Part shown: one piece after another, positions 1-23,707 of the stretch | Numbering within the stretch: position 1 is the stretch's first letter | How the letters are laid out: every line of letters starts with the position of its first letter | DNA from: Okeania sp. | GTDB taxonomy: Bacteria > Cyanobacteriota > Cyanobacteriia > Cyanobacteriales > Microcoleaceae | Assembly: GCF_035285525.1 (NCBI RefSeq) | Contig: NZ_JAYKGW010000241.1 | Span: forward strand, 1 to 23,707 | Direction of reading: 5' to 3' | DNA: 23,707 nt | Notes under the pieces: model-generated | What the model was told of the DNA's origin: nothing | What the model saw: only the letters and a program-made list of their open reading frames with translations | Databases searched by the model: none | Made by a program: the position numbers and the translations under genes

Positions 1-236
1 ATTTACAGGTACAGGTGTCGGAACTACTGGTTGACTTACCCCTTGATTTACAGGTACAGGTGTCGGAACTACTGGTTGACTTACCCCTTGATTTACAGGT
101 ACAGGTGTCGGAGCTACTGGTTGACTTACCACTACTGGTGCTGTCGGAGCTACTGGTTGACTTACAGGTACAGGTGTCGGAGCTACTGGTTGACTTACCT
201 CTTGACTTACAGGTACAGGTGTTGGTGTATCAGTAA
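1..236 (-). repeat. 45-bp (15-codon) tandem repeat inside the sir 3' extension, encoding Pro/Val-rich repeats ([15 protein letters not shown] and variants)
   Basis: The unit atttacaggtacaggtgtcggaactactggttgacttaccccttg recurs at 1, 46 and 91, then as shortened or variant copies to about 236. The period is a multiple of 3 and in frame with sir. The array continues past the window edge. Confidence 0.85.
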
Positions 237-2307
237 AAGTAGAACTATTTACAGGCTGAGTTTCAGTAGTTACTCCTTCAGTGGTATTTGTCGTCGTTTG
301 ATTCACAACAGTATTTAATGGAGTTACCAATGTACCACCATCAATATTAGTAGGTGAATTGACTGGAGAATTAATAGAACTCTCTTGCTGATTATTTTCC
401 AGATTTGTTGTACTTATCTGTTGCTCTGGAAGTTTAGTCTCTGGAGTCGTCTGAGTAACATTTGTAATTACTGGAATATTCTTTTCAGAATTGACTGAAG
501 TAAAACTTGGATTGTTAATATCTGTATTCATCGAGAAACTAGATTGATTGTTGGTTACAAACTTACGGATGGCTTCAATACCGACACGATTACAGAAATC
601 ACCGAAACTCTCATCTGGTTGCCGTTGTTGCTTGAAATAAATAAAGATTCGCTCCAACTCAGCTTCCAAATTATTGATATGCAGTTTGTCAATATAAGGT
701 TTTGCTAGTCGTGTTTGATTAGGCGAACCCCCTAACCAAATCTGATAAGCATCAGGAGCACTACCAACAAATCCTAATTCCGCCATATAGGGTCTAGCAC
801 AGCCATTTGGACATCCTGTCATTCTAATTACAAAATGCTCCTGTCCTAGTCCCACCTTGTCCAACAATAACCTAATTTGTCCCAGTATGCCAGGTAAGGC
901 CCTCTCTGATTCTGTAATAGCAAGTCCACAAGTAGGTAAAGCAGGACAGGCCATACTATACCGGACTAAGGGATCAATCTCTTTTTCTATTCTGATACCA
1001 TGCTGAGAGAATATTTTTTCTATTGCTTGTTGCTGCTGTGGTTTAATTTCGTAGAGAATGATATTATGGTTAGCTGTTAAAAGCATAGGTAGCTTAAACA
1101 AACCAACTAATTTTCGTATAGCTGTCTTTAACTGAGATGTATCGTCATCTTTTACCCGACCATTTTCTACTGAAATTCCTAAAAATAGGTTTCCATCTCC
1201 CTGTTCATGCCATCCTAGAAAGTCAAAATATTTCCATTCTGGCAAAGGTCTGAAGGGAGCAATAGACTTGCCAAAATATTCTACTACCTTAGCCTTAAAT
1301 TTTTCTACTCCCCAGTCATGGATTAAATATTTCATTCTAGCATGACGACGTTGAGAGCGATCGCCATAATCTCTTTGAGTAGCTACTATAGCTTTAACGA
1401 AATTAAATATATCTTCTTTGGGGATATATCCAATTTCTTGAGCTAGACAAGGGAAAGTTTCTTCTTTTCTATGAGTACGACCTAAGCCACCACCTGCTAA
1501 AACATTAAATCCTTCTAATTCTCCGGCTTGATTAGTAATTACAACTAGACTAACATCCTGAGTATATAGGTCTATGGAATTATCCCCTGGAACTGTTACT
1601 GCACACTTAAATTTTCTGGGCATATAGTGAGTACCATAAATAGGCTCTTCACTATTGGGAAATATTGTACCATTAATATTAAGTTGTCTAGCCGCTTTTA
1701 CCTCTGGAGCTTCTTCTGCACTAATTACTTTTTCTCCATCCAGCCAAATTTCATAATATGCTCCTGTTTGAGGTGTTAATAAATCTGCTATTTTATTAGC
1801 ATAATCTCTAGCATATTCATATTCAGGACGATTTTTATAAGGAGCTGGGGGAGACATAACATTTCTGTTTAAATCTCCACAAGCACCTAATGTCGAACCC
1901 ATACTTTTAATAATGGATGATATGACATATTTCAGATTTTTCTTTAATACTCCATGCAACTGAAAACCTTGTCTAGTTGTTACCCGAAGCGTACCATTAC
2001 CATACTCATTAGATAATTGATTTAAGGTGAGAAAAAGTTGTGGCGGAATAAACCCACCTGGGTTCCGGGTGCGAAGCATCATTTGATAATCTTTCTCTTG
2101 CCCTTTAATTCTATTATCTCTATTATCTTGTTGATAAGAACCGTGAAATTTTAGTATTTGAATAGCTTCTTCCGTGAAGTGAGTTGTTTCTTCCAGCAGT
2201 TGGGTTGCCAGGGGTTCCCGTAAGAAATTACTATTTTCTTTTATTCCTTCTACTTTAGAAGTTTTCTGAGCTATATTTGTGGTTGAAATTTGAGATGGGA
2301 TTGTCAT
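1..2307 (-). CDS. sir: ferredoxin-sulfite reductase (siroheme/[4Fe-4S]); 3'-partial, because the reading frame is still open at the window edge
   Basis: Absent from the supplied ORF track because no stop codon lies inside the window. The minus-strand ATG is the complement of cat at 2305-2307. Plus-strand triplets in phase 1 contain no tta/cta/tca from 1 to 2307, giving 769 codons. The translation starts MTIPSQIST and contains [47 protein letters not shown] and [22 protein letters not shown]. The last two are the Cys clusters of plant/cyanobacterial ferredoxin-sulfite reductase. The conserved part ends near ...[14 protein letters not shown] (about nt 560). Confidence 0.9.
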
Positions 2308-6307: not shown

Positions 6308-8506
6308 ATGGATGATATTGAAAAGGATTTACAAAGATGGAAGAAAGAGCAAGAACTCATCCTTAACCAAATAGATAATGGCATTGCTCTCTTCAATAAT
6401 TCTCATCACCTAATTCTATTTAATCACAAACTGTCTGAAATTTGGGGATTATTACCAGAGTGGCTAAAAACAAAACCTCATAGCAATGACATCTTTGCCG
6501 AAATAGTTGCTCAAGGTTATTGGTCAACCCAACAACGTCAACAACTACAAAACTGTCTCCTCAAAATCAAAACCGAAAATCAAATACTATACATAGAACA
6601 ATCTAATAAAATTTCCCTGAAAGTAGACTGCACCATTACATCAGACAGAAGTTATCTATTAACCTTTCGAGATATAAGTATATATCAACAGTCTCAAACT
6701 AGCCTCAATGCAGAAGTAAAAAGATTAACATTTCTCCTTGGCCTCAACGAACGACTCCAATACTCAGATAGCTTAAGAGAAATAGCCCAATTTGCCCTTA
6801 ATTATCTCGTAGAAGTAATGAATGCTGCCTTTGGCGATGTCAAAGTTATCAATGGGAAAGGAAAAAAACGTCAAGCAGGACCAATCTCTAATCAAATTAC
6901 TTCTCAATTTATTGCTACCTATGGCAAACCAGCAGTAGCTGAAATGGAAAAATTGTTGCAAAAAGGTATTCCTTATGGTAGAGGACTTTTGTGGGAAGTC
7001 GTCGAGAGCAGCAAACCTATATATGTTGAAAATTATGCTCATCAACCCAATTCAATACCAGGATTTCGTCATCCAGGAATTGGTCAACTAGGAATTTTTC
7101 CAATCCCAGCCACAGATGGGACAATTATTGGTGTTTTGACTTTAGAATCTCGTAACCTGCGAAAACTACAAGAAGCCCCCCAAAAAGATATGTTATTTGC
7201 AGCTTGTCGTACTTTAGGAGTAGCAATAGAAAGAGCCCAGTCTCAAGAACGTCTACGTCAAATTAATGAAGAATTAGAACGTTCTTCTCAATTAAAATCA
7301 GAATTTTTGGCTTCTATGTCCCATGAATTGAGAACCCCGCTTAATAGTATTTTAGGGTTTTCTGATTTATTACAACGACAAGCATCCGAACCATTAAGCG
7401 ATCGCCAGCTTAATCAAGTTAGACTAATTCAAAAAAGTGGTCAACATTTATTAGGGTTAATTAACGATATTCTCGATTTATCTAAGATAGAGTCAGGGAA
7501 AACAGAGCTAAGTTTAGAGTTAATTAATATTCACGAAGTTTGTACAGATTGTTTAAGAATGATTCAGCCACGAGCTGATAAAAAAAGATTGGCTTTATCT
7601 TTAGAATTAGATTATCGCATATCTGAAGCTTATCTTGATCGGCGTCGGGTGAGACAAATAATTATTAATTTACTTTCTAATGCTATTAAGTTTACACCAG
7701 AAGGAGGAAAGGTTAAACTTAGCGGAAGTTTAGCTTATGGTAGTCAAATTCAAGGTGATTATCGACCTGATTGTTCTCCAATTAATTCTAGTACACCTTA
7801 TTTATGTTTAGAGGTAAAAGATTCTGGTATTGGTATTCCCCAAGATAGATGGGAAATGTTATTTAGACCTTTTCAACAAGTTGATTCTTCTTTATCTAGA
7901 AAACATGAAGGTACAGGTTTAGGTTTAGCTTTGACAAAAAGATTAGCAGAATTACATGGTGGAACTATTTCTTTAGATTCTCAAGTTAATAAAGGTAGCA
8001 CTTTCCGGGTGTGGTTGCCATTAACAGAAATGCGCCAGGAGTTAACAGTTAGTTCTGTTCCGAAAAATGACGATCAAGTATCTTCAGAGAGTGATACTGA
8101 GAAAAGATTAGAAACTGAAAAGTCTGTTAGGATTTTAATAGTTGAAGATCAGCCTTATAACCAACTTTTAATTTCTCAAGTATTGGAGTTAGAGGGATAT
8201 GAAGTTGAGTTAATTAGTGATGGTAAAACTATGTTGAATATGATTAATTCTCCTCTGGTTATTTCTCCAAATTTACCAAATTTAATTTTGATGGATATTC
8301 AGTTACCGGAGGTTGATGGGTTAGAATTAATTAAGAAAATTAAGAATAATTCTATATGGCAATATGTACCAGTTATTGCTGTAACTGCTATGGCAATGGT
8401 GGGCGATCAAGAAAAATGTTTAAATGCTGGTGCATTGGCTTATCTTAGTAAACCTTTAAATATTGAAGAGATGGTTTCCACTGTAAAATCTTTGTTGAGT
8501 AATTAG
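6308..8506 (+). CDS. hybrid sensor histidine kinase (PAS - GAF - HisKA - HATPase_c - receiver)
   Basis: 732 aa. H-box is SHELRTPLN. ATPase boxes are LLSNAIKFT, KDSGIGI and GTGLGLALTK. The C-terminal receiver has ILIVEDQ, LILMDIQLPEVDG and SKP. The N-terminal PAS-like segment (IALFNNSHHLILFNHKLSEIWG) and the GAF-like middle region are assigned by pattern only. Confidence 0.9.
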   Translation: MDDIEKDLQRWKKEQELILNQIDNGIALFNNSHHLILFNHKLSEIWGLLPEWLKTKPHSNDIFAEIVAQGYWSTQQRQQLQNCLLKIKTENQILYIEQSNKISLKVDCTITSDRSYLLTFRDISIYQQSQTSLNAEVKRLTFLLGLNERLQYSDSLREIAQFALNYLVEVMNAAFGDVKVINGKGKKRQAGPISNQITSQFIATYGKPAVAEMEKLLQKGIPYGRGLLWEVVESSKPIYVENYAHQPNSIPGFRHPGIGQLGIFPIPATDGTIIGVLTLESRNLRKLQEAPQKDMLFAACRTLGVAIERAQSQERLRQINEELERSSQLKSEFLASMSHELRTPLNSILGFSDLLQRQASEPLSDRQLNQVRLIQKSGQHLLGLINDILDLSKIESGKTELSLELINIHEVCTDCLRMIQPRADKKRLALSLELDYRISEAYLDRRRVRQIIINLLSNAIKFTPEGGKVKLSGSLAYGSQIQGDYRPDCSPINSSTPYLCLEVKDSGIGIPQDRWEMLFRPFQQVDSSLSRKHEGTGLGLALTKRLAELHGGTISLDSQVNKGSTFRVWLPLTEMRQELTVSSVPKNDDQVSSESDTEKRLETEKSVRILIVEDQPYNQLLISQVLELEGYEVELISDGKTMLNMINSPLVISPNLPNLILMDIQLPEVDGLELIKKIKNNSIWQYVPVIAVTAMAMVGDQEKCLNAGALAYLSKPLNIEEMVSTVKSLLSN

Positions 8507-9306: not shown

Positions 9307-10737
9307 ATGTCTAACAAACAGCCATGTATTCTAGTAGTTGATGATGAAGCAAATAATCTAACTTTATTAAAAGAACTATTAGAATCAGAAGGATACACCA
9401 CTATATCAGCAAACAATGGTAAAAAAGCACTACAAATTGCTAATCAATCTCCACCTGATTTAATATTACTAGATATAATGATGCCCGAAATTGATGGATT
9501 TGAAGTTTGTAAATCCTTACGTCATAATCCACAATTAAACACAATTCCCATAATTTTTTTAACAGCCCTAAATGATGAAAAATCTCAATTAAAAGGCTTA
9601 GAATTAATGGGAGATGATTATATTACCAAGCCATTTAACACTCCTTTGCTTTTAGCCAAAATTGCTAGTCTTTTACGATTAAATAAAATACGTTCTCAAA
9701 CTACAAAATATCAAAAAAACACTAAAAAACTAGATAAACAAAGTGATTTAGAACTATCAGCAGCATTAAAAATTAATCAAGTTTTATCAGAAAAATTTAG
9801 ATTGTTTGTGCCACAGCAATTTTTATCCAGAATAGCACCCAAAGGTGTAGACTCAATTAAACTTGGGGATGCCACAGAAGAAGAACTAACAGTTCTATTT
9901 TGTGATATTCGAGGCTTTACAGCAATAGCTGAATCACAAAACGCAAGAGATACTTTGAAATGGTTAAATTCTTTTTTTAATGAAATGACTACCAGTATTT
10001 CTGCTAATCAAGGATTTATAGATAAATTTTTAGGTGATGCAATTATGGCAGTATTTGATAAATATGAATATCATAGTTTAAATGGGTTGAAAGCTGCTAT
10101 AAGTATGCAGGAAAATTTACAAAATTTTAATCTTAATTATCATAAATATAATCTCAGAGAACCTGTAAAAATTGGTATTGGTGTTCATACAGGTATTGGT
10201 GTTATTGGTACTTTGGGTTCCGAAAAAAGAATGGATTCTACAGTTATTGGAGACGTTGTTAATACTGCATCTCGTTTAGAAAGTTTAACTAAGACTTATG
10301 GATGTTCAATTATTGTCAGCGAGCAAGTTATTTCGGAAATACAAAATAACTGTCAAGCAGGAAAACAGATAGAAGCTAAGAATAAAAATTGCAATAGTCA
10401 TAATAATCAGCCTACTTACCCTGAAAAAATTTATTACAGGTGGATTGATACAGTTATTTTGCGGGGAAAACAAATAGCTATCAACATTTATGAGTTACTA
10501 GGCACTGAAAAGAATATTATTGAATCCGAAAAAATTGCAACTTTATCAATATTTAATAAAGCAGTTAAAGGATGGAAAGTTGGTAAATATGCAGCAGCTT
10601 TAGAATATTTTCAACAAGTAAAAAAGCTCAACTCTCTTGATAATATTGCTGGTTTATATATCGAACGTTGCCAAGAAAAACTTGTTTTGGTAGAAACTGG
10701 AAAAAATGATGTAAATTTAACTGATTCAAATTTTTAA
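9307..10737 (+). CDS. response-regulator receiver fused to a class III adenylate/guanylate cyclase domain, with a TPR-like C-terminal tail
   Basis: 476 aa. The receiver has ILVVDDE, LILLDIMMPEIDG and TKP. The cyclase homology domain has LTVLFCDIRGFTAIAE, FLGDAIMAVF, IGIGVHTGIGVIGTLG and GDVVNTASRLES. Confidence 0.9.
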   Translation: MSNKQPCILVVDDEANNLTLLKELLESEGYTTISANNGKKALQIANQSPPDLILLDIMMPEIDGFEVCKSLRHNPQLNTIPIIFLTALNDEKSQLKGLELMGDDYITKPFNTPLLLAKIASLLRLNKIRSQTTKYQKNTKKLDKQSDLELSAALKINQVLSEKFRLFVPQQFLSRIAPKGVDSIKLGDATEEELTVLFCDIRGFTAIAESQNARDTLKWLNSFFNEMTTSISANQGFIDKFLGDAIMAVFDKYEYHSLNGLKAAISMQENLQNFNLNYHKYNLREPVKIGIGVHTGIGVIGTLGSEKRMDSTVIGDVVNTASRLESLTKTYGCSIIVSEQVISEIQNNCQAGKQIEAKNKNCNSHNNQPTYPEKIYYRWIDTVILRGKQIAINIYELLGTEKNIIESEKIATLSIFNKAVKGWKVGKYAAALEYFQQVKKLNSLDNIAGLYIERCQEKLVLVETGKNDVNLTDSNF

Positions 10738-10824: not shown

Positions 10825-11385
10825 TATGATATAAGAATCACTCTTACTCTCTTTCCAGCCAACTCTTCTGTAACTTTCCTAGCTCTTAACTATTCCCTAC
10901 CTCCACTTTTTTAGTTTTCATGTTTGAAAATTAAAAATTAGATAAAGTTATAGTTTTCTAATTTTGGTTTTAATATTTTAAATTTTACTATTTTTGTCTG
11001 GCTGTTAAATCGGAAAATTTTTTTGACTTGGTTAACGAAGTTTCAAGATTTTTAGCGCTTTTTTTCAGTTTTGTGATATCCTATACTTATGATATTGTTG
11101 GTATATTTTATGTCTTGACTGATTTTTATGGCTATTAATTCTTATTCTGCTGTTGTTTTGGTTGATTTTTGTCTGAATCTGCTTTGCTCAAAATGACTTT
11201 TTTTCTTTGCCCGTTTTTGGCTATTTTGACAAAATCAAAATTTTGTGATATGGAAGCAGAGTTTTTAGTCTTTTGACATTTTATTTTTGTTGAATAATTA
11301 GTCTAGTGTATGGGCGAAAGAAGTCCAACGATATAATGATACCACGGTTGGTTTGAGGATGCAACCCTAATTCTCAGATTTTTTT

Positions 11386-11990
11386 GGGTGCTTCACAGAA
11401 TGAAAAATTTGAGTAGTTAAGAAAGGTTTGACGAAAGAGGCGATCGCTACTTTACCTCCTGGGGTGCTTCACAGAATGAAAAATTTGAGTAGTTAAAAGA
11501 AGTTGGCTCCAAGAGAAAATTCCTGCCTCCTTTCTTAGGGTGCTTCACAGAATGAAAAATTTGAGTAGTTAAAAGAAGTTGGCTCCAAGAGAAAATTCCT
11601 GCCTCCTTTCTTAGGGTGCTTCACAGAATGAAAAATTTGAGTAGTTAAAAAAGGTTTGAGGAAAGAGGCGATCGCTACTTTCCTTCTGGGGTGCTTCACA
11701 GAATGAAAAATTTGAGTAGTTAAAAAAGGTTTTATGAAAGAGAAAATTCCTACCTCCTTTCTTAGGGTGCTTCAGAGAATGAAAAATTTGAGTAGTTAAA
11801 AGAAGTTGGCTCCAAGAGAAAATCCCTACTTTACCTTCTGGGGTGCTTCACAGAATGAAAAATTTGAGTAGTTAAAAGAAGTTGTCTCCAAGAGAAAATC
11901 CCTACTTTCCTTCTGGAGTGCTTCACAGAATGAAAAATTCTAAGTAGTTTAAGAAAGGTTTGATGAAAAAGCTGATAACTGTTCATTGAA
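11386..11990. repeat. array of 8 tandem 75-76 bp non-coding units (invariant 35-nt core plus a diverged 40-nt half)
   Basis: Unit starts are 11386, 11462, 11538, 11614, 11689, 11765, 11841 and 11916. The core GGGTGCTTCACAGAATGAAAAATTTGAGTAGTTAA is identical in units 1-5 and 7, has one substitution in unit 6, and is degenerate in unit 8. Units 2 and 3 are identical over all 76 nt. Confidence 0.95.
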
Positions 11991-12043: not shown

Positions 12044-12862
12044 TTAACCGAAACGACCACTTACATACTGTTGAGTAGCTTCCTCCTTCGGATTTTGGAA
12101 AATATTGTGAGTTTCATCAAATTCCACCAAATAACCAAAACGCTGACCACCCTCCTCAGCTTTTGCATTAAAAAAGGCCGTTACATCGGCCACCCTAGTT
12201 GCTTGCTGCATATTGTGAGTCACAATAATAATAGTGTAATTTTCCTTCAGCTCATTAATCAACTCCTCCACCTTAATAGTAGAAATAGGGTCAAGAGAAG
12301 CACAAGGCTCATCCATCAAAACCACATCCGGACTAACAGCAACTGCACGAGCAATACACAAACGTTGTTGCTGACCTCCAGAAAGAGCAAAACCACTTTG
12401 CCCCAACTTATCCTTAACCTCATCCCATAAAACAGCTTGTCGTAGCGATCGCTCAACTATCTCATCCATCTCCTCCTTAGTTTTAGCCAAACCATTAATT
12501 CTAACTCCATAAGCAATATTATCATAAATTGACTTAGGAAAAGGATTAGGCTTTTGAAACACCATTCCGATGCGACGGCGAATTTCTACAGGGTCAATAT
12601 TTGGATCATAAATATTGTGATTATGATAAAGAATACGACCTTTTAAACGGAAAATACTAATCAAATCATTGAGACGATTAAAGCAACGTAATAATGTACT
12701 TTTACCACAACCAGAAGGTCCGATAAAAGCAGTTACTCTATTTTTAGGAATTTCTAATGAAACACCTCTTACCGCTTCAAAACCTCCGTAAAAAATACTG
12801 ACATCTTCTGCTGAAAGAGCAGAAGCAAAATTTACTTTAGAAAGATTTATTTGAGACTCCAT
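12044..12862 (-). CDS. pstB: phosphate ABC transporter ATP-binding protein
   Basis: 272 aa. Walker A is GPSGCGKST, the signature is [14 protein letters not shown] and Walker B is VVLMDEP. It is last in a pstSCAB-ordered cluster. An SD (GGAGG) lies 8 nt before the ATG. Confidence 0.95.
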
Positions 12863-13178
12863 TAGACATAACCTCCTAAATTTTGTAGTCTAAAAATTAT
12901 TTTATTTATAGCTTTTATAGCTTTAAGCGGTCAGCCATCAGCCATCAGCAAATCAACGAATAATTCCTTCTTAGTTTAGAGAAAATTACATTGGTAGTAA
13001 CTTTTAATTCTTCCTCAATTTGAGAATTACTTTTACCAATTAACTAATAATTATTCTCCAGAACTTTAAAACCTCTATTTTTAAATAAATAATTGATAAT
13101 TATAGATAGTTTTCATTATCCATTATCAATTAAATTAAGTAAAGTTTTAACCAGAAGTAATTATTCATCATCAATTAA

Positions 13179-14063
13179 TCAAAATTGCTTTTGACTGGTT
13201 GCCCAACGAGAAAGAATACTGGTAATTAAAACCAATAAAACTAACACCAAAGAACCTGCCCAAGCAAACTCTTGTAAAACCAAATCAAAACTACGGGCAA
13301 ACTCATATACTAGATATGCCAAAGATGGTACAGTCGGCGCCAAAGGTCCACGAGGCCAATTATTAGAATAAACCACAGTAAAAAGTAGTGGAGCTGTTTC
13401 TCCAGCAGCACGAGCGATCGCTAGAGTTATACCTGTAATAATACCTGGTAAAGCAGCAGGCAAAACTATTTGTAAAACAGTTTGATAATTAGAAGCACCA
13501 ACTCCTACAGATGCCCATCTAATATCTTTAGGAACTATTTGTAAAGCCTCATCAGTAGTTCTAATAATAGTAGGTAACATCAAAATTGATAAAGCAACTC
13601 CTCCAGCAAATGCAGAAAATTTCCCCATAGTTAAAACCAATAAACTATAGGCAAATACCCCAGCAATAATTGATGGTACACCACTCAAAACATTAGTCGC
13701 AAATCGAATTGGGCGGGAAGTTTTTTCGTCACTAAATTCTGACAAATAAACTGCTGCTAAGATACCAAAAGGTACTGCAATTAAACTAGCAATTACTACT
13801 ACCATAATTGTACCTAAAATAGCATTAGCAATACCCCCTGATGTTTGACCTGCTGCGGGAGGTAATTGAGTAAATAAATCTAAATTTAGACGACTTACTC
13901 CTTTAATAAAAACATAAATTAATACAGCAAAGAGAGGGATAAGAGTGATAACTATGCAACTAGCTGATAAAGCAGTCATCACTTTATTAAAAATTTCCCT
14001 GGAGCTAGTAGGGTTTCTTTTTAGATTAATAGAAGATTGTGGGTTATCGGTAGTATTTTTCAT
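13179..14063 (-). CDS. pstA: phosphate ABC transporter permease
   Basis: 294 aa polytopic membrane protein with a binding-protein-dependent permease loop (LAIARAAGETAPLLFT). Its position between pstC and pstB supports the call. Confidence 0.9.
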   Translation of the reverse strand: MKNTTDNPQSSINLKRNPTSSREIFNKVMTALSASCIVITLIPLFAVLIYVFIKGVSRLNLDLFTQLPPAAGQTSGGIANAILGTIMVVVIASLIAVPFGILAAVYLSEFSDEKTSRPIRFATNVLSGVPSIIAGVFAYSLLVLTMGKFSAFAGGVALSILMLPTIIRTTDEALQIVPKDIRWASVGVGASNYQTVLQIVLPAALPGIITGITLAIARAAGETAPLLFTVVYSNNWPRGPLAPTVPSLAYLVYEFARSFDLVLQEFAWAGSLVLVLLVLITSILSRWATSQKQF

Positions 14064-14113
14064 TTCAGTTATCAGTTACATTTCAGTTATCAATTATCAG
14101 TTATCAGTTATAA
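14064..14113. repeat. STRR heptamer repeat (CAGTTAT-type) abutting the pstA start codon
   Basis: ttcagttatcagttacatttcagttatcaattatcagttatcagttataat. Confidence 0.9.
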
Positions 14114-14325
14114 TATTCTACCTTTGTATGTAATCAGATTTAATTCTGGTTCAATCAAACTTTATTTTTAAAGTTTCAAGTTTAAATAAAGCTTTTCCTT
14201 CAACATAAAGTCATAGCTAATAGTTGACAAATGACCGCTCAATATTTACACCTGAATTAATTTGCATCCTCATTTTCTAGTTTTTCTAATAATTTGAAAT
14301 CCTATAAATTAGCTATTTATCCCAA

Positions 14326-15300
14326 TTAATACTTAGCTTTAATTTGATTCACAATCCAATTAGCAAGTATATTTACAAGTAAAGTTAAAACAAACAGAAC
14401 TATCCCTGTATACATCAAAGCAGAAAGTTGTAAACCAGAAGCCTCAGCAAATTGATTTGCCATCAAAGAAGCGATAGTATTAGCAGGAGCAAAAAGAGTA
14501 AACTTAATCGAATTAGCATTACCAATTAACATAGTTACAGCCATAGTTTCTCCCATAGCTCTTCCTAAACCTAACATTACACCACCAACAATTCCCGAAA
14601 AAGCAGCAGGAATTAAAACCCTAATAATAGTACCCCAACGAGTAGCCCCTAAACCCAAAGAAGCTTGTCGTAAATCAGGCGGTAAACTAGCAAGAGAATC
14701 ACGAGAAATTGCCGTAATAATTGGTAGAATCATTATTGATAAAATAACAACAGCAGGAAACATTCCCGGACCTCCTGCACGGACACCTTCTGGAATAGAA
14801 AATAGTGGAATCCACCCCAAAAATTGACCAAGAAAAGCTTCCACTGGTTCAAGAAAAGGAAGTAAAACATAAATACCCCATAAACCATAAACTACACTAG
14901 GAATAGCTGCTAATAATTCCACCATAAAAGTCAATGGAACAACTATTTTTTTAGGGAGAAAATCCTCACTTAGAAATATTGCTGTACCAACACCTAGAGG
15001 AACCGCAATAAATAGGGCGAAAATAGAACTAACCAAGGTTCCCACAATCATTGGCCATGCACCATAATCACCCTGCCCATCATTAGCAACAGGGTTCCAA
15101 ACACTTTTGAAAAGAAAACTCAGACCAAATTCATTAATAGATGGTATTGCACGAGAAGCTACAGTTAAAGCCATTAATATCAAAAGAACTGCTATACCCC
15201 AAGCAAATATTTTAGTCAGGATAATAAAACCATTATCAAACTTTTTTTCTCCATCACTCCGAGAGCGATTATCTTTTTGAATTTGAGATTGTGCAACCAT
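14326..15300 (-). CDS. pstC: phosphate ABC transporter permease
   Basis: 324 aa polytopic membrane protein with a permease loop (GLGRAMGETMAVTMLIGN). It lies directly downstream of pstS. Confidence 0.9.
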   Translation of the reverse strand: MVAQSQIQKDNRSRSDGEKKFDNGFIILTKIFAWGIAVLLILMALTVASRAIPSINEFGLSFLFKSVWNPVANDGQGDYGAWPMIVGTLVSSIFALFIAVPLGVGTAIFLSEDFLPKKIVVPLTFMVELLAAIPSVVYGLWGIYVLLPFLEPVEAFLGQFLGWIPLFSIPEGVRAGGPGMFPAVVILSIMILPIITAISRDSLASLPPDLRQASLGLGATRWGTIIRVLIPAAFSGIVGGVMLGLGRAMGETMAVTMLIGNANSIKFTLFAPANTIASLMANQFAEASGLQLSALMYTGIVLFVLTLLVNILANWIVNQIKAKY

Positions 15301-15624
15301 ATATTTTTTGATTCTACCTAACGTAAATTGTTCATAAATATTCAGATTTTAGCTATTAGCTATTTCTGCTGAATTTTCACAAATTTTCTACCTTTTCTAG
15401 CCTTGATTAATTTACTTATAAATTTTTTTTAAAGATACTTTTGAAATGACAGCAGATTCCACTTTTATGAAGTACACCTAAGCAAGATTTCCGGTTCGCT
15501 AATATGCGAATATTTAATAATTAAATCCGTGCTTCTTATAATTAGAATTTGCTATATATTCTTTTCCCAAAATGACAAAAGTTTAATTCAAAATACTAAA
15601 TTATGAATTAAACTTTTTTTGATT

Positions 15625-16704
15625 TTATTTGAGAGTCATGGTGTAATCTGGACTAATTTTATCAGCAGCTTCTAGAACTTTTTGACGTACATTTTCAGGT
15701 AGAGGAATATAACCTAATTCAGAACTAACTTGTTGACCTTCATTTAAACCATATTCAATCATTTTTTCTATACCTGTAGCTTTATCTGCATCATCATAAC
15801 TACCATAAACAAGCATCCAAGTATAAGTTACAATAGGATAAGAATCTTCCCCCTCTGGATCGGTAATAAAAGCTCGTAAATTCTCAGGTAATGTAACTGC
15901 GGCTAAAGTTGCTGCCGCTGATTCAGGAGCAGGCTCTATATACTTACCAGCTTGATTTTCTAGAGAAGCCATACTGAGGCCAGCACTCTTAGCATAACCA
16001 TACTCAACATACCCTATAGTTCCTTCTGTTTGTTTAATTTGAGCAGTTACACCATCATTCTTAGCACCACCAATACCTGTTAGCCATTGAACAGTTTTAC
16101 CTTCTCCTACTTTTTCTTTCCACTCTGGACTAATAGCACTTAAATGCTGGGTGAAAACTCCAGTTGTACCACTACCATCAGAACGATATACAACTGTAAT
16201 AGCTTGATCTGGCAAAGTCAAATCCGGATTGATTTCAGCTATTTTGGGGTCATTCCAGTTAGTAATCTTACCCAAAAGGATATCTACATAAACTTTTCTG
16301 GAAAGTTTGAGACCAGAAATATCAGGCAAGTTGTAAGCTAAAACCACACTACCCGCAGTCATCGGTAGTAAGATAACCCCTCTCCCTACTTTGGCAATTT
16401 CATCATCTTTCATTGCCACATCAGAAGCACCAAAATCTACTAACTCTTGAGTAAATCTTTCCACACCAGCTCCACTACCAACTGACTGATAATCTACTTG
16501 TATATTAAGGTCAGTATTACCTAACTCTTGAAACCAACGTTGATAGATAGGTGATGGAAAAGAAGCTCCAGCTCCAACTAAGCTTACTGAACCACCTCCA
16601 TTATTACTACCACCACTACAGGAAGCCAAACCAAATGTTATAACTACTGCCGATACCTTTGCTGTAATATTAGTTATTCCAGAAAGACTTATACCAAATT
16701 CCAT
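15625..16704 (-). CDS. pstS: periplasmic phosphate-binding protein, lipoprotein form
   Basis: 359 aa. It has a lipobox (FGLASC followed by a SGGSNNGGGS linker) and PstS-type motifs GAGASFPSPIYQRW, YQSVGSGAGV and YRSDGSGTT. Confidence 0.95.
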   Translation of the reverse strand: MEFGISLSGITNITAKVSAVVITFGLASCSGGSNNGGGSVSLVGAGASFPSPIYQRWFQELGNTDLNIQVDYQSVGSGAGVERFTQELVDFGASDVAMKDDEIAKVGRGVILLPMTAGSVVLAYNLPDISGLKLSRKVYVDILLGKITNWNDPKIAEINPDLTLPDQAITVVYRSDGSGTTGVFTQHLSAISPEWKEKVGEGKTVQWLTGIGGAKNDGVTAQIKQTEGTIGYVEYGYAKSAGLSMASLENQAGKYIEPAPESAAATLAAVTLPENLRAFITDPEGEDSYPIVTYTWMLVYGSYDDADKATGIEKMIEYGLNEGQQVSSELGYIPLPENVRQKVLEAADKISPDYTMTLK

Positions 16705-16768
16705 AGTTGCTTAGGTTTCTATATTTTTCTAGACACTAAAAAGAATAAACGAAAGCTTCACATTTTGC

Positions 16769-16818
16769 GGTTAAAGGAAGGTTAAAGAAAGGTTAAAGGA
16801 AGGTTAAAGGAAGGTTGA
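16769..16818 (-). promoter_or_regulatory. Pho-box array (PhoB/SphR binding sites) upstream of pstS-pstCAB
   Basis: The plus strand shows ggttaaaggaa ggttaaagaaa ggttaaaggaa ggttaaaggaa ggttgatgata with an exact 11-bp phase. The minus strand reads TTTAACCT + 3 nt, repeated. This matches the published cyanobacterial Pho-box consensus PyTTAAPyPy(T/A) with a 3-nt linker. It lies 65-115 nt upstream of the pstS ATG. Confidence 0.75.
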
Positions 16819-17065
16819 TGATAGTGAATTATTAGCATAAATATAGGGGATATTAATTAAATTTTCTCAGAAAAATCTTATATTTAAAGTCGAATCAAAA
16901 TATCAGAGAAAGTAGTTAAAAGTATCACCTTATTAGTCACAAATAAAGACCCTTTTTCCAATTCCTATCTAATACAAACTCCACTTATGAAAAGGTAGTT
17001 TTTCCAAATTATTCTCACCCTTCCGCCTTACATTATCAAATAATAAAGCTTTTCTATAAACTACA

Positions 17066-17112
17066 AAAACCAAAAAATCAACCCTTCTTTGTATACAAGA
17101 ATAAGAAGGGTT
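17066..17112 (-). terminator. Rho-independent terminator after the upstream pstS paralog
   Basis: Minus strand: AACCCTTCTT-loop-AAGAAGGGTT (10-bp stem) followed by GATTTTTTGGTTTTT, about 20 nt after the stop at 17134. Confidence 0.75.
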
Positions 17113-17133
17113 TAATCATTTTTTTACTAAAAA

Positions 17134-18234
17134 TTACTTAAGTTTAATTTGATAGCCAGAGCTAATTTTATCAGCAGCAGCAGCAACTGTTTGACGAACA
17201 TTGTTAGGTAGTGGAATATAACCTAATTCAGCACTTACCTTTTGCCCTTCATTTAAGCCATATTCAACCATTTTTTCTATAGCTACACCTTTAGATCCAT
17301 CATACTTGCTATACATTAGCATCCAAGTATAAGTAGCAATAGGATAAGAATTAGCACCGTCAGGATCGCTAATAAACGCACGAAGATTTCCAGGTAATTT
17401 TACTGCTGCTAAAGTAGCCTTAACTGAATCTTGAGAAGCGCTAACATATTTACCAGCTTTATTTTGTAGAGCTGCTGTAGGGAGACCAGCGCTCTTAGCA
17501 AAACCAAACTCAATATATCCTATTCCTCCCTTTATTTGTTTGATTTGAGCAGCTACACCATCATTCTTCGCACCGCCAACACCTGTTGGCCATTGAACAG
17601 TCTTACCTTCTCCTACTTTACTCTTCCACTCTGGACTAATAGCACTCAAATGCTTAGTGAAAACTCCAGTGGTACCACTACCATCAGAACGATGAACTAC
17701 CGTAATTGGTAGGTTAGGCAAATTTACCCCAGAATTAATAGCTTGAATTTTAGCATCATTCCAGTTTTTAATTTTACCCAAAAATATATCTACATAAACA
17801 GCTCTGGATAATTTTAGGTTAGATACACCTGGAACATTGTAAGCTAACACAACACTACCTGCTGTCATAGGAAGCATGATAACACCTCTCTTAACTTTGG
17901 CAATTTCATCATCTTTCATTGCCACATCAGAAGCACCGAAATCTACTAATTCTTGAGTAAAATCTCTAACACCAGCACCACTACCTTTGGATTGATAGTC
18001 TACACTAACATCTTTAAAATCTTTAAACCAACGCTGATACAGTGGAGCAGGAAAAGATGCACCCGATCCTAAAAGCTTAACTTTTTGTTGGGCTAGACTG
18101 TACTTTACTCCAGCAACTGTAGTAACTAAACCAATAGTTAATGCTACGAGGGAAGCTTTGGAGGTATTACGAATTACTCGACTAAGATTGATACCAAGTG
18201 TCATGTATTTACTCTCTGATATTGAATTTAACAA
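17134..18234 (-). CDS. pstS: periplasmic phosphate-binding protein, second paralog with a non-lipoprotein signal peptide
   Basis: 366 aa, and by eye roughly 75-80% identical to the neighbouring PstS over the mature part. The N-terminus has a TM/signal segment ending SLAQQ with no Cys. Alignment with the paralog suggests the true start may be the Met at 18204 (MTLGINLS..). Confidence 0.9.
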   Translation of the reverse strand: MLNSISESKYMTLGINLSRVIRNTSKASLVALTIGLVTTVAGVKYSLAQQKVKLLGSGASFPAPLYQRWFKDFKDVSVDYQSKGSGAGVRDFTQELVDFGASDVAMKDDEIAKVKRGVIMLPMTAGSVVLAYNVPGVSNLKLSRAVYVDIFLGKIKNWNDAKIQAINSGVNLPNLPITVVHRSDGSGTTGVFTKHLSAISPEWKSKVGEGKTVQWPTGVGGAKNDGVAAQIKQIKGGIGYIEFGFAKSAGLPTAALQNKAGKYVSASQDSVKATLAAVKLPGNLRAFISDPDGANSYPIATYTWMLMYSKYDGSKGVAIEKMVEYGLNEGQKVSAELGYIPLPNNVRQTVAAAADKISSGYQIKLK

Positions 18235-18507: not shown

Positions 18508-19614
18508 GTGGTTCAAACACCCCTATCAACCCATACAGAAACTAATACCAAAGCTTTCCTATCTTTGCCAGAGACAAGAAGTCAGTTACAACAACAACTT
18601 CATAATTTAGCCAAGCAAATTATTTCTGGGTATCGTCTTAGTCGAGAAGAAGCTATGACACTGACTCAAATTACAGGAGAGGAAGATATTCTGCTACTTT
18701 GTGAAACTGCAGACCAAGTTCGTCAAGCTTGTTGTGGTAACATAGTAGATCTGTGTAGCATTGTTAATGTCAAATCTGGAGGCTGTTCAGAGAATTGTAG
18801 CTTTTGTTCCCAATCAGCTCATCATCCAGGAGAAGGTTCCCCTATTTATGGCCTTAAGTCTACTGAGGAAATTTTAGCTCAAGCAAAAGCAGCAGAAGCA
18901 GGTGGGGCGAAAAGATTTTGCTTAGTGTCTCAGGGTAGAGGGATTAAGTATAACAGTCCCAAGTCTACAGAATTTGAAGAAATTCTGGCTACGGTACGAC
19001 AAATAATTGCTGAAACTAATATTAAGCCTTGTTGTGCTTTAGGAGAAGTAACTCCCGAACAAGCTAAAGCACTAGCAGAGGCAGGAGTGACTCGCTACAA
19101 TCATAATTTGGAAGCCTCTGAGAATTTTTACCCAGAAATTGTCACAACTCATAGTTGGTATGACCGAGTAGAAACAGTGAACAATCTAAAAGCAGTAGGT
19201 ATTCAGGCTTGTACTGGGGGTATTATTGGTATGGGAGAAACTTGGGAAGATAGAATAGATTTGGCCTTAGCTTTGCGAGAGTTAGAAGTTGAGTCTGTAC
19301 CTTTGAATTTGTTAAATCCTCGTGAAGGTACGCCATTGGGTGATGTGCCCAAATTAGAGCCTTATGATGCTTTGAAAGCGATCGCTATTTTCCGTCTGAT
19401 TTTACCACAGCAAATTATTCGTTATGCTGGAGGACGAGAAGCTGTGATGGGAGAATTACAAGCTTTAGGTTTGAAGGCTGGTATTAATGCTATGTTGATT
19501 GGTCATTATTTGACAACTCTTGGTCAACCCCCAGAAAAAGACCAAGCAATGCTAGAATCATTAGGACTGCAGGGTGGAGAAACTCCTGTTAAAACTAATA
19601 GAACTTACCCATAA
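18508..19614 (+). CDS. bioB: biotin synthase (radical SAM)
   Basis: 368 aa with CSENCSFCSQS (CxxxCxxC), YNHNLE and GGIIGMGE. It has a GTG start. About 35 aa at the N-terminus precede the region I can align to BioB from memory, so the start is uncertain. Confidence 0.9.
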   Translation: MVQTPLSTHTETNTKAFLSLPETRSQLQQQLHNLAKQIISGYRLSREEAMTLTQITGEEDILLLCETADQVRQACCGNIVDLCSIVNVKSGGCSENCSFCSQSAHHPGEGSPIYGLKSTEEILAQAKAAEAGGAKRFCLVSQGRGIKYNSPKSTEFEEILATVRQIIAETNIKPCCALGEVTPEQAKALAEAGVTRYNHNLEASENFYPEIVTTHSWYDRVETVNNLKAVGIQACTGGIIGMGETWEDRIDLALALRELEVESVPLNLLNPREGTPLGDVPKLEPYDALKAIAIFRLILPQQIIRYAGGREAVMGELQALGLKAGINAMLIGHYLTTLGQPPEKDQAMLESLGLQGGETPVKTNRTYP

Positions 19615-19838: not shown

Positions 19839-19976
19839 CTATAAAATTATTATTTCTTCCCTGTTCCCTGTTCCCTGTTCCCTGTTCCCTGTTCCCTGTT
19901 CCCTGTTCCCTGTTCCCTGTTCCCTCTATAAAATTATTATTTCTTCCCTGTTCCCTGTTCCCTGTTCCGTGTTCCC
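19839..19976. repeat. nested repeat: the block [ctataaaattattatttctt + (CCCTGTT)n] occurs twice
   Basis: The 20-mer is at 19839-19858 and again at 19926-19945. (CCCTGTT) occurs as 9 perfect copies at 19859-19921, and about 4 copies at 19946-19976. Confidence 0.95.
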
Positions 19977-19994
19977 TCTCTCAACTTAACTGAA

Positions 19995-23501: not shown

Positions 23502-23546
23502 TAGATATCTCCAGAAAAGAGAGAACACTTAACTGGGAACAGAGAA

Positions 23547-23707
23547 CAGTTGTAGGTTGGGTTGAGGGACGAAACCCAACAAAACTTTGAACAGTTGTAG
23601 GTTGGGTTGAGGGACGAAACCCAACAAAACTTTGAACAGTTGTAGGTTGGGTTGAGGGACGAAACCCAACAAAACTTTGAACAGTTGTAGGTTGGGTTGA
23701 GGGACGA
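23547..23707. repeat. 45-bp tandem repeat (at least 3.5 copies, running off the window), each unit holding an 8-bp-stem hairpin
   Basis: The unit cagttgtaggttgggttgagggacgaaacccaacaaaactttgaa starts at 23547, 23592, 23637 and 23682. The hairpin is GTTGGGTT-gagggacga-AACCCAAC. Confidence 0.95.

Follow-up and report, generated by a model that had tools for sequence, protein, structure and literature searches.

A long, repeat-bearing tail on a cyanobacterial sulfite reductase: the probable expanded linker to a C-terminal ribbon-helix-helix domain

The 23,707-nt stretch of cyanobacterial DNA considered here (contig NZ_JAYKGW010000241.1; hereafter "the window", meaning the whole stretch) opens inside sir, a minus-strand gene for a ferredoxin-dependent assimilatory sulfite reductase (Sir). 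Beyond the catalytic core, the reading frame of this gene continues through 184 codons of low-complexity and, finally, tandemly repeated sequence until it runs off the end of the DNA. This locus raises the question of whether such a tail is truly part of the protein and, if so, where it leads. Comparison with orthologues makes it probable that the protein has three parts and that the tail is the middle one, greatly expanded: a ferredoxin-sulfite reductase core is followed by a disordered low-complexity spacer and then, just past position 1, by a domain of about 50 amino acids (aa) with a ribbon-helix-helix (RHH) fold, the C-terminally encoded peptide (CEP) of SiR. On this reading the two-domain protein and its linker are both known, and the tail is a lineage-specific expansion of that linker which resembles a variable number tandem repeat (VNTR). 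What is new, to judge from the literature that could be searched, is the extreme, repeat-driven and polymorphic expansion of this linker in Trichodesmium, Okeania and Dapis. Literature searches found no paper on a long or repetitive Trichodesmium Sir linker, nor one that mentions Q10YP3 or ABG52631.

Catalytic core and the open frame of the tail

The sir gene starts with an ATG at nt 2305-2307, and its frame of 769 codons is free of stops down to nt 1. The equivalog model for ferredoxin-dependent Sir, TIGR02042, matched the product with 1016.4 bits against a cut-off of 731.5, aligning model positions 5-579 of 581 with Sir residues 11-585 (numbered from the initiating Met), and the Pfam families NIR_SIR and NIR_SIR_ferr (PF01077, PF03460) matched two stretches each. 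The cluster/siroheme cysteines C454, C460, C499 and C503 (C-x5-C ... C-x3-C) were invariant in an alignment of 36 sequences. In the AlphaFold model of the window protein the last core helix spans residues 577-592, and maize SiR (5h8v) aligned to residues 11-589 of the Trichodesmium erythraeum orthologue (E 2e-205) and no further. Because TIGR02042, the maize enzyme and the model all end at this place, the residues from about 586 or 593 to 769, encoded between nt 1 and approximately nt 530-552, are extra to the core. The subdivisions of the protein are listed in Table 1.

The open frame of the tail exceeds chance. Its 184 codons contain no in-frame stop; the other two sense frames contain 23 and 12, and the antisense frames 3, 13 and 15. 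Dinucleotide shuffles of the tail had a mean of 12.0 in-frame stops, and none of 5000 was stop-free; when the non-repeat part was shuffled by itself, a single stop-free sequence was obtained in 5000. These statistics, together with the comparison of orthologues, exclude the explanation that a sequencing error erased a true stop near nt 540-560 and that the DNA beyond it is non-coding. Approximately 12 stops would be expected where none is found, the same frame is open into a conserved domain in more than 20 independent assemblies, one of them a finished genome, and all of the repeat periods are divisible by 3. A lost stop therefore retains next to no credence.

The composition of the tail is strongly biased, with V32, T30, P30, N21, S19 and Q16 accounting for 80% of the 184 residues; just 2 residues are K, 11 are D/E and 3 are aromatic, and R is absent. 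Residues 592-769 were modelled by AlphaFold with a predicted local distance difference test (pLDDT) score of 24-35 and no secondary structure. The repeat array at nt 1-225 is composed of units of 15, 11, 12, 15 and 15 aa, plus a 7-aa partial unit at the window end; Tandem Repeats Finder (TRF) reported a period of 45 nt in 2.9 copies at 98% identity (nt 1-130) and one of 33 nt in 3.3 copies (nt 88-198). An earlier note on this DNA, made from the letters of the window, had claimed that the frame stays open through a tail of about 185 codons to position 1 and had read the tail as a disordered linker, and both statements are borne out by the stop counts, the shuffles and the predicted structure. 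Its description of at least five repeats of 15 aa (45 bp) needs amendment, since the repeats are present but two of the five full units are shortened, which leaves three of 15 aa. A stop near nt 540-560, which the note thought that orthologues might reveal, did not appear; in more than 20 relatives the frame stays open.

The C-terminal domain and the length of the linker

A homology search covering 5.8 billion proteins returned, as its top 23 matches, Sir proteins of 736-921 aa from Okeania, Dapis, Trichodesmium and metagenome-assembled genomes (MAGs) of Microcoleaceae, all of which carry a comparable tail. Some 20 complete closest homologues (794-921 aa) run in frame from this tail into a shared C-terminal sequence (...KPKDTSKMRHRVSVRDEIYTKLKEESKRQGKPVVQLATEAIAEYLEKIR...), a domain of about 50 aa that is near-identical among the complete relatives of this clade. 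The closest genome is that of T. erythraeum IMS101, a finished genome with 92% identity over the Sir core, in which Sir is of the long-tail type and 902 aa long. The sir locus of IMS101 also shares with the window an upstream gene for a DUF2854 membrane protein, and it is because of this common neighbour and of the long-tailed 902-aa Sir that the window can be assigned, by homology, to a relative of Trichodesmium. Beyond the contig end, further repeats are predicted, followed by the RHH domain (...KPKDTSKMRHRVSVRDEIY...; KPKDTSKMRHRVSV...). The suggestion of the earlier note that the linker leads to another domain outside the window is upheld by the ~50-aa C-terminal domain of the complete orthologues.

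The Sirs of less closely related cyanobacteria (634-718 aa) close with a recognisably homologous domain, of the pattern R-x-R-V/I-S-V-R-D-E-x-Y...LK...QGKP...LA.EAI..YL. Five diverse CEPs matched mainly RHH-type Pfam families (RHH_1, RHH_3, RHH_5, ParG, ParD, Omega_Repress, 56B_RHH, FitA-like and others), most of them just below the cut-offs and one, ParG, above. A profile built from 23 CEPs matched AvtR, ParG, a CopG-family protein, ORF56, ParD, PutA-RHH, omega and MazE6 in the PDB, with E-values of 4e-4 to 0.04. In the AlphaFold model of the CEP (pLDDT 86.9), an extended basic segment (K-x-R-x-R-V-S-V-R) precedes two helices, 16-29 and 33-55, which are separated by a conserved G30-K31-(P/T/S) turn; the CEP was modelled as a monomer, so strand pairing and a dimer are invisible. 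The top Foldseek matches of this model in the PDB were RHH proteins, namely MazE6, ORF56, the PutA DNA-binding domain (2jxg), CdbA, CopG (1b01) and Arc, with probabilities of at most 0.99 and TM-scores of at most 0.77. When aligned with the ends of other cyanobacterial Sirs, R11 and K23 are invariant, and K7, G30, K31, A40 and Y44 nearly so. Profiles and modelling applied to the orthologues thus agree in predicting a ribbon-helix-helix fold for the end domain.

A two-domain architecture of core plus RHH is already published. The ~50-aa CEP of SiR was predicted to adopt an RHH fold, and addition of the bean CEP to Arabidopsis SiR (AtSiR) relocated the enzyme to chloroplast nucleoids (Kobayashi et al., 2016; PMC4898807). 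The CEP was also noted in cyanobacterial and red-algal SiRs, and its origin was inferred to be cyanobacterial (PMC4898807). Likewise, algal-type SiRs were found to end in CEP-like sequences in a search of representatives, clustered at 50%, with the 902-aa orthologue; the distribution of linker lengths was not resolved by this search. The earlier note had considered that an anchoring or scaffolding tail on an assimilatory sulfite reductase would be unusual; a tail of this kind has a published precedent, and only the length of the spacer and its tandem repeats are special. The premise of the note that ferredoxin-sulfite reductases end soon after residue ~590 does not apply here; this is true of CEP-less maize SiR, but cyanobacterial Sirs generally end in an RHH domain after a linker of 13-94 aa.

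Other kinds of extension and rearrangement were seen among Sir homologues. Two SiR homologues of 843 and 783 aa, apparently non-cyanobacterial and 42-45% identical, have C-terminal extensions of 180-250 aa unrelated to the CEP, in which a disordered stretch is followed by repeated Y..(F)VY...G.V..T.V(F)YYG(E) modules. In a 728-aa Sir of an uncultured Thermosynechococcus, about 90 aa of the core are duplicated internally (...RDYGDR twice), possibly through an assembly artefact; this protein still has a CEP-like RHH end after a 13-aa linker.

The length of the linker, measured from the core end (FGDFC.R.G...IR) to the CEP start in 120 homologues and 20 genomic loci, is 13-15 aa in the shortest forms, 23-63 aa in most cyanobacteria, 94 aa in one intermediate form and 149-288 aa in the Trichodesmium/Okeania/Dapis clade and its sister group. 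Depending upon the core end chosen, the window shows about 177-189 linker residues, with the CEP not yet reached. The alignment with cyanobacterial orthologues that the earlier note had proposed thus confines the long tail, among the homologues measured, to this clade and its sister group. Evolutionary rates differ strongly along the protein. The core has a nonsynonymous rate (dN) of about 0.05 and a dN/dS ratio (omega) of 0.07-0.14, and the CEP a dN of 0-0.036 at synonymous rates (dS) of 0.14-1.2. For the linker, identity falls to 37-58%, with dN of 0.28-0.63 and omega of about 0.4-0.9 (0.42-0.88 against the window). By these rates, the CEP appears to be at least as constrained as the catalytic core, and the spacer appears to evolve nearly neutrally.

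The repeats behave as a coding VNTR. The period is 45, 33 or 36 nt in the window, 51 in T. erythraeum, 48 in Dapis and some Okeania, 42 in one Trichodesmium MAG, 36 and 72 in O. hirsuta, and 27 or 54 in others; all TRF periods in 15 tails are multiples of 3, and the arrays are often 95-100% identical internally. A loose GQ(E/P)VSQP...P(T) theme recurs across the repeats of relatives with differing periods, which suggests common ancestry of the repeats followed by homogenisation in each lineage. The variation of repeat number between strains that the earlier note had asked about is evident. Within one Trichodesmium cluster defined at 90% identity, Sir proteins of 804, 821, 838, 855, 872 and 889 aa contain between 1 and 6 copies of a 17-aa unit, TPTLEQQE(D/E)QPEV(A/E)LTT, and the Sir of T. 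erythraeum itself was found in versions of 885 and 902 aa.

Such arrays are also places where assemblies fail. Among the relatives, one Okeania contig ends at the array, four other loci contain N-gaps inside it, and three NCBI entries annotated as "partial" stop there. The right end of the window (nt 23544-23707) likewise consists of a perfect 45-bp tandem repeat, with 3.6 copies at 100% identity and a hairpin in each unit (GTTGGGTT...AACCCAAC). Because tandem repeats are located at both ends, the 23.7-kb window is most likely an entire short-read contig bounded by repeats, and the open reading frame runs off the window because the assembly broke inside the repeat array.

A proposed spacer and its alternatives

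The spacer is proposed to consist of a short conserved motif, then about 100 aa rich in N/T/S/Q/P, and then the in-frame tandem repeat array. Arrays of this kind would grow, shrink and homogenise through replication slippage or unequal recombination, and it is this turnover that would cause unit sequence, period and copy number to vary between species and between near-identical populations. Selection would hold the flanking domains, the frame and a composition that lacks cysteine and is poor in aromatic and basic residues, not the sequence of the spacer. RHH domains are dimers that insert a two-stranded sheet into DNA. Since they act in this manner, Sir would be dimerised and tethered through its C-terminus. 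Its most plausible anchor, by analogy with the nucleoid-type SiR of plants, would be DNA or the nucleoid; a role as a PutA-like enzyme-regulator is an alternative. A long spacer would let the enzyme head range tens of nanometres from its anchor, and this extra length may be useful or may merely be tolerated.

Several points weigh against this proposal of a spacer that leads to a DNA-binding RHH domain. The window stops before the C-terminus, and the presence of the CEP in this organism is read from its orthologues. In an attempt to extend the contig, an exact 48-mer from the tail had no match in collections of genome and metagenome contigs, a scan of metagenome contigs with tail peptides yielded no relative, and exact look-ups of neighbouring proteins returned either nothing or only a 2.7-kb Logan contig. 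An 842-aa Sir relative on a 73.8-kb NCBI contig is frameshifted within the repeats (...GPGKRGPGRISDGPGKRDPGR...) and lacks the CEP; the frameshift may be a true allele or an assembly error inside the repeat. The Foldseek E-values of the CEP are weak (at least 0.098) because the domain is tiny (58 residues), and the monomer model cannot display the paired strand. Association of the cyanobacterial CEP with DNA or the nucleoid is predicted only, by analogy with the plant CEP on AtSiR, and in the account given in PMC4898807 cyanobacterial SiR is reportedly not nucleoid-associated (Sato 2004, as cited there). Most of the copy-number differences were seen in metagenomes assembled from short reads, and in such assemblies tandem repeats can be miscounted. 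Finally, conservation and low synonymous divergence at the core/linker junction, described below, are not accounted for by a purely passive spacer.

The frameshifted relative, which reads the repeats in another frame and has no CEP, invites the explanation that sir is damaged in this organism as well, with a frameshift or termination inside the repeats that would make the tail a dead end without an RHH domain, and the window ends before the outcome would be visible. Nevertheless, the CEP is kept in every other complete relative with a dN of about 0, the 225 nt of repeats in the window are themselves in frame and stop-free, and the tandem repeats at both window ends argue for an assembly break rather than biology, so that damage to the gene is very improbable. 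A different alternative accepts the three-part protein and assigns the spacer a function of its own, as a scaffold for multivalent docking, as a region that forms condensates, or as a length-tuned "ruler", a contingency-type VNTR in which selection would act on the number of repeats. The spacer is at least 149 aa long in every member of the clade, its composition and the GQ(E/P)VSQP-type theme persist across genera, its arrays are 95-100% identical at the DNA level, implying ongoing turnover, its copy number is polymorphic, and the junction motif is conserved. On the other hand, close relatives differ freely in the sequence of the unit, its charge (acidic QEE-type or neutral PV-type), its period (27-54 nt and multiples) and its number, the linker has a dN/dS of 0.4-0.9, one locus contains essentially a single unit, and 13-15 residues suffice in other cyanobacteria. 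A functional module of this kind is considered unlikely.

The junction gives rise to the remaining alternative, in which sir makes two products, an internal start at M593 or an RNA element at the junction giving a free linker-RHH protein or modulating read-through into the tail. The junction motif, which begins TN(N/Y) and occupies approximately the first 28 residues, is the only well-conserved stretch of the linker. About 46 nt around its ATG are near-invariant in 16 genomes, and the pooled synonymous divergence (pS) of the junction (window 469-590, residues 573-613) is 0.11, the lowest in the gene; within the core the median is 0.417 and the minimum 0.138. A weaker S-M-N/T-x-E/Q motif that includes the Met is present in other Oscillatoriales Sirs. 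Nonetheless, neither a promoter-like site at the junction nor a Shine-Dalgarno-like sequence upstream of the ATG was found, Rfam gave no match and RNAalifold no covariation there, a strict test for runs of invariant codons was not significant, and core residues 469-499 have a pS almost as low (0.138). For want of any such signal (Rfam match, covariation, promoter-like site or significant codon run), an RNA or promoter element was dropped as a candidate. The motif is, moreover, conserved as protein over wider distances, which fits a peptide motif, and a second product is regarded as distinctly improbable. The conservation of the junction itself may reflect a short peptide motif or an internal start at M593, or it may be noise. 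A more far-reaching version of the tethering proposal, in which the Sir of this clade would be a DNA-tethered or PutA-like self-regulating enzyme with a hypermutable coding VNTR that sets the reach or valency of the tether, selectable repeat number that couples sulfur assimilation to the nucleoid or to gene regulation, and a junction motif that acts as a docking or control element, is a doubtful extension. The reading preferred here remains that of an expanded, largely unconstrained linker between the sulfite reductase core and the CEP.

Other features of the window and known systems compared

Table 1. Features of sir and of neighbouring genes in the window (nt positions; residues refer to Sir)
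Feature	Position	Strand	Remarks
sir CDS, ferredoxin-dependent assimilatory sulfite reductase	1..2307	minus	769 codons; 5' end complete, 3' end cut by window (contig) end
Catalytic core, residues 1-592	532..2307	minus	TIGR02042, last helix of the model, maize alignment, dN/dS 0.07-0.14
Conserved junction motif, residues 586-613	469..552	minus	in-frame ATG (M593, SMNTDINN); 75-86% identical to relatives
Non-repetitive N/T/S/Q/P-rich spacer, predicted to be disordered, residues 614-694	226..468	minus	pLDDT ~25-30; identity to relatives 38-55%; dN/dS 0.42-0.88
Pro/Val-rich in-frame tandem repeats, residues 695-769	1..225	minus	array cut by window end
Hybrid PAS-GAF histidine kinase	6308-8506		
Response-regulator adenylate/guanylate cyclase	9307-10737		
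pst-like ABC transporter cluster	12044-18234	minus	two PBP_like_2 binding proteins, two BPD_transp_1 permeases, one ABC ATPase

The transporter, kinase and cyclase genes of the window are ordinary gene content. Several other repeats accompany them. Arrays of the heptamer TCAGTTA (= TAACTGA) are located directly upstream of the sir start (2309-2342; 4.9 copies) and between two ABC-permease genes (14058-14111; about 7 copies), and arrays of this heptamer also occur at non-homologous positions in five Okeania loci but not in the T. erythraeum locus that was fetched; ahead of sir they are not conserved in relatives. From this distribution, the heptamers look like a dispersed repeat family of the short tandemly repeated repetitive (STRR) type rather than a sir operator. 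An omega-like RHH operator, for which the TAACTGA heptamers upstream of the sir ATG had been considered, was accordingly rejected on the grounds that the heptamer is also present at 14058-14111 and at non-homologous sites and is absent from the T. erythraeum locus. In an intergenic array at 11379-11968, a 76-bp unit recurs about 7.7 times; two variants of the unit alternate, and there are higher-order periods of 227 and 303. This array was rejected as a CRISPR, since its "spacers" are repeats too. Between a radical-SAM/BATS gene (18508-19614) and the next open reading frame, at 19857-19977, lies a 7-bp unit, TTCCCTG, in 16.9 tandem copies.

The knowledge of sulfite reduction itself is unchanged by these findings. 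They do explain the "partial" or broken annotation of Trichodesmium-type Sir genes, as assemblies fail in the coding tandem repeat, and the array is a potential marker for strain typing in Trichodesmium populations. With up to about 290 disordered residues between the enzyme and the RHH domain, the clade also constitutes a natural experiment on whether the proximity of enzyme and anchor matters.

The closest parallels are other sulfite reductases. In plant nucleoid-type SiR with CEP (pea, soybean and Phaseolus; PMC4898807), as in the protein discussed here, a ferredoxin-SiR core is followed by a ~50-aa peptide predicted to be an RHH domain; in plants the CEP lies close behind the core, whereas 149-288 disordered, repeat-bearing residues intervene in the Sirs of the clade. 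The ordinary cyanobacterial Sir (634-690 aa; Coleofasciculus, Microcoleus, Lyngbya and Arthrospira) is orthologous and has the same core and RHH end, but its linker is 13-63 aa long (94 in one) and free of tandem repeats. CEP-less maize SiR (5h8v) and E. coli CysI share the catalytic core and end there, with neither linker nor RHH domain.

Outside this family, PutA (PDB 2jxg, 2gpe and 2rbf) is a "trigger enzyme" that also combines a metabolic redox enzyme with an RHH domain, and the CEP matched this RHH both in sequence and in structure. The RHH of PutA is N-terminal and is a proven operator-binding autorepressor, whereas Sir is not known to have an operator or a regulatory role. The resemblance to Sir, whose RHH is C-terminal, is one of mechanism by analogy, the two fusions not being homologous. 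As for the spacer, the Pro/Thr-rich interdomain linkers and coding VNTRs of bacteria are likewise of low complexity, are predicted to be disordered, contain in-frame repeats that are polymorphic in copy number, and frequently break assemblies. Those linkers typically belong to secreted or surface proteins, whereas the Sir linker is part of a cytoplasmic assimilatory enzyme, in which it lies between two strongly constrained domains.

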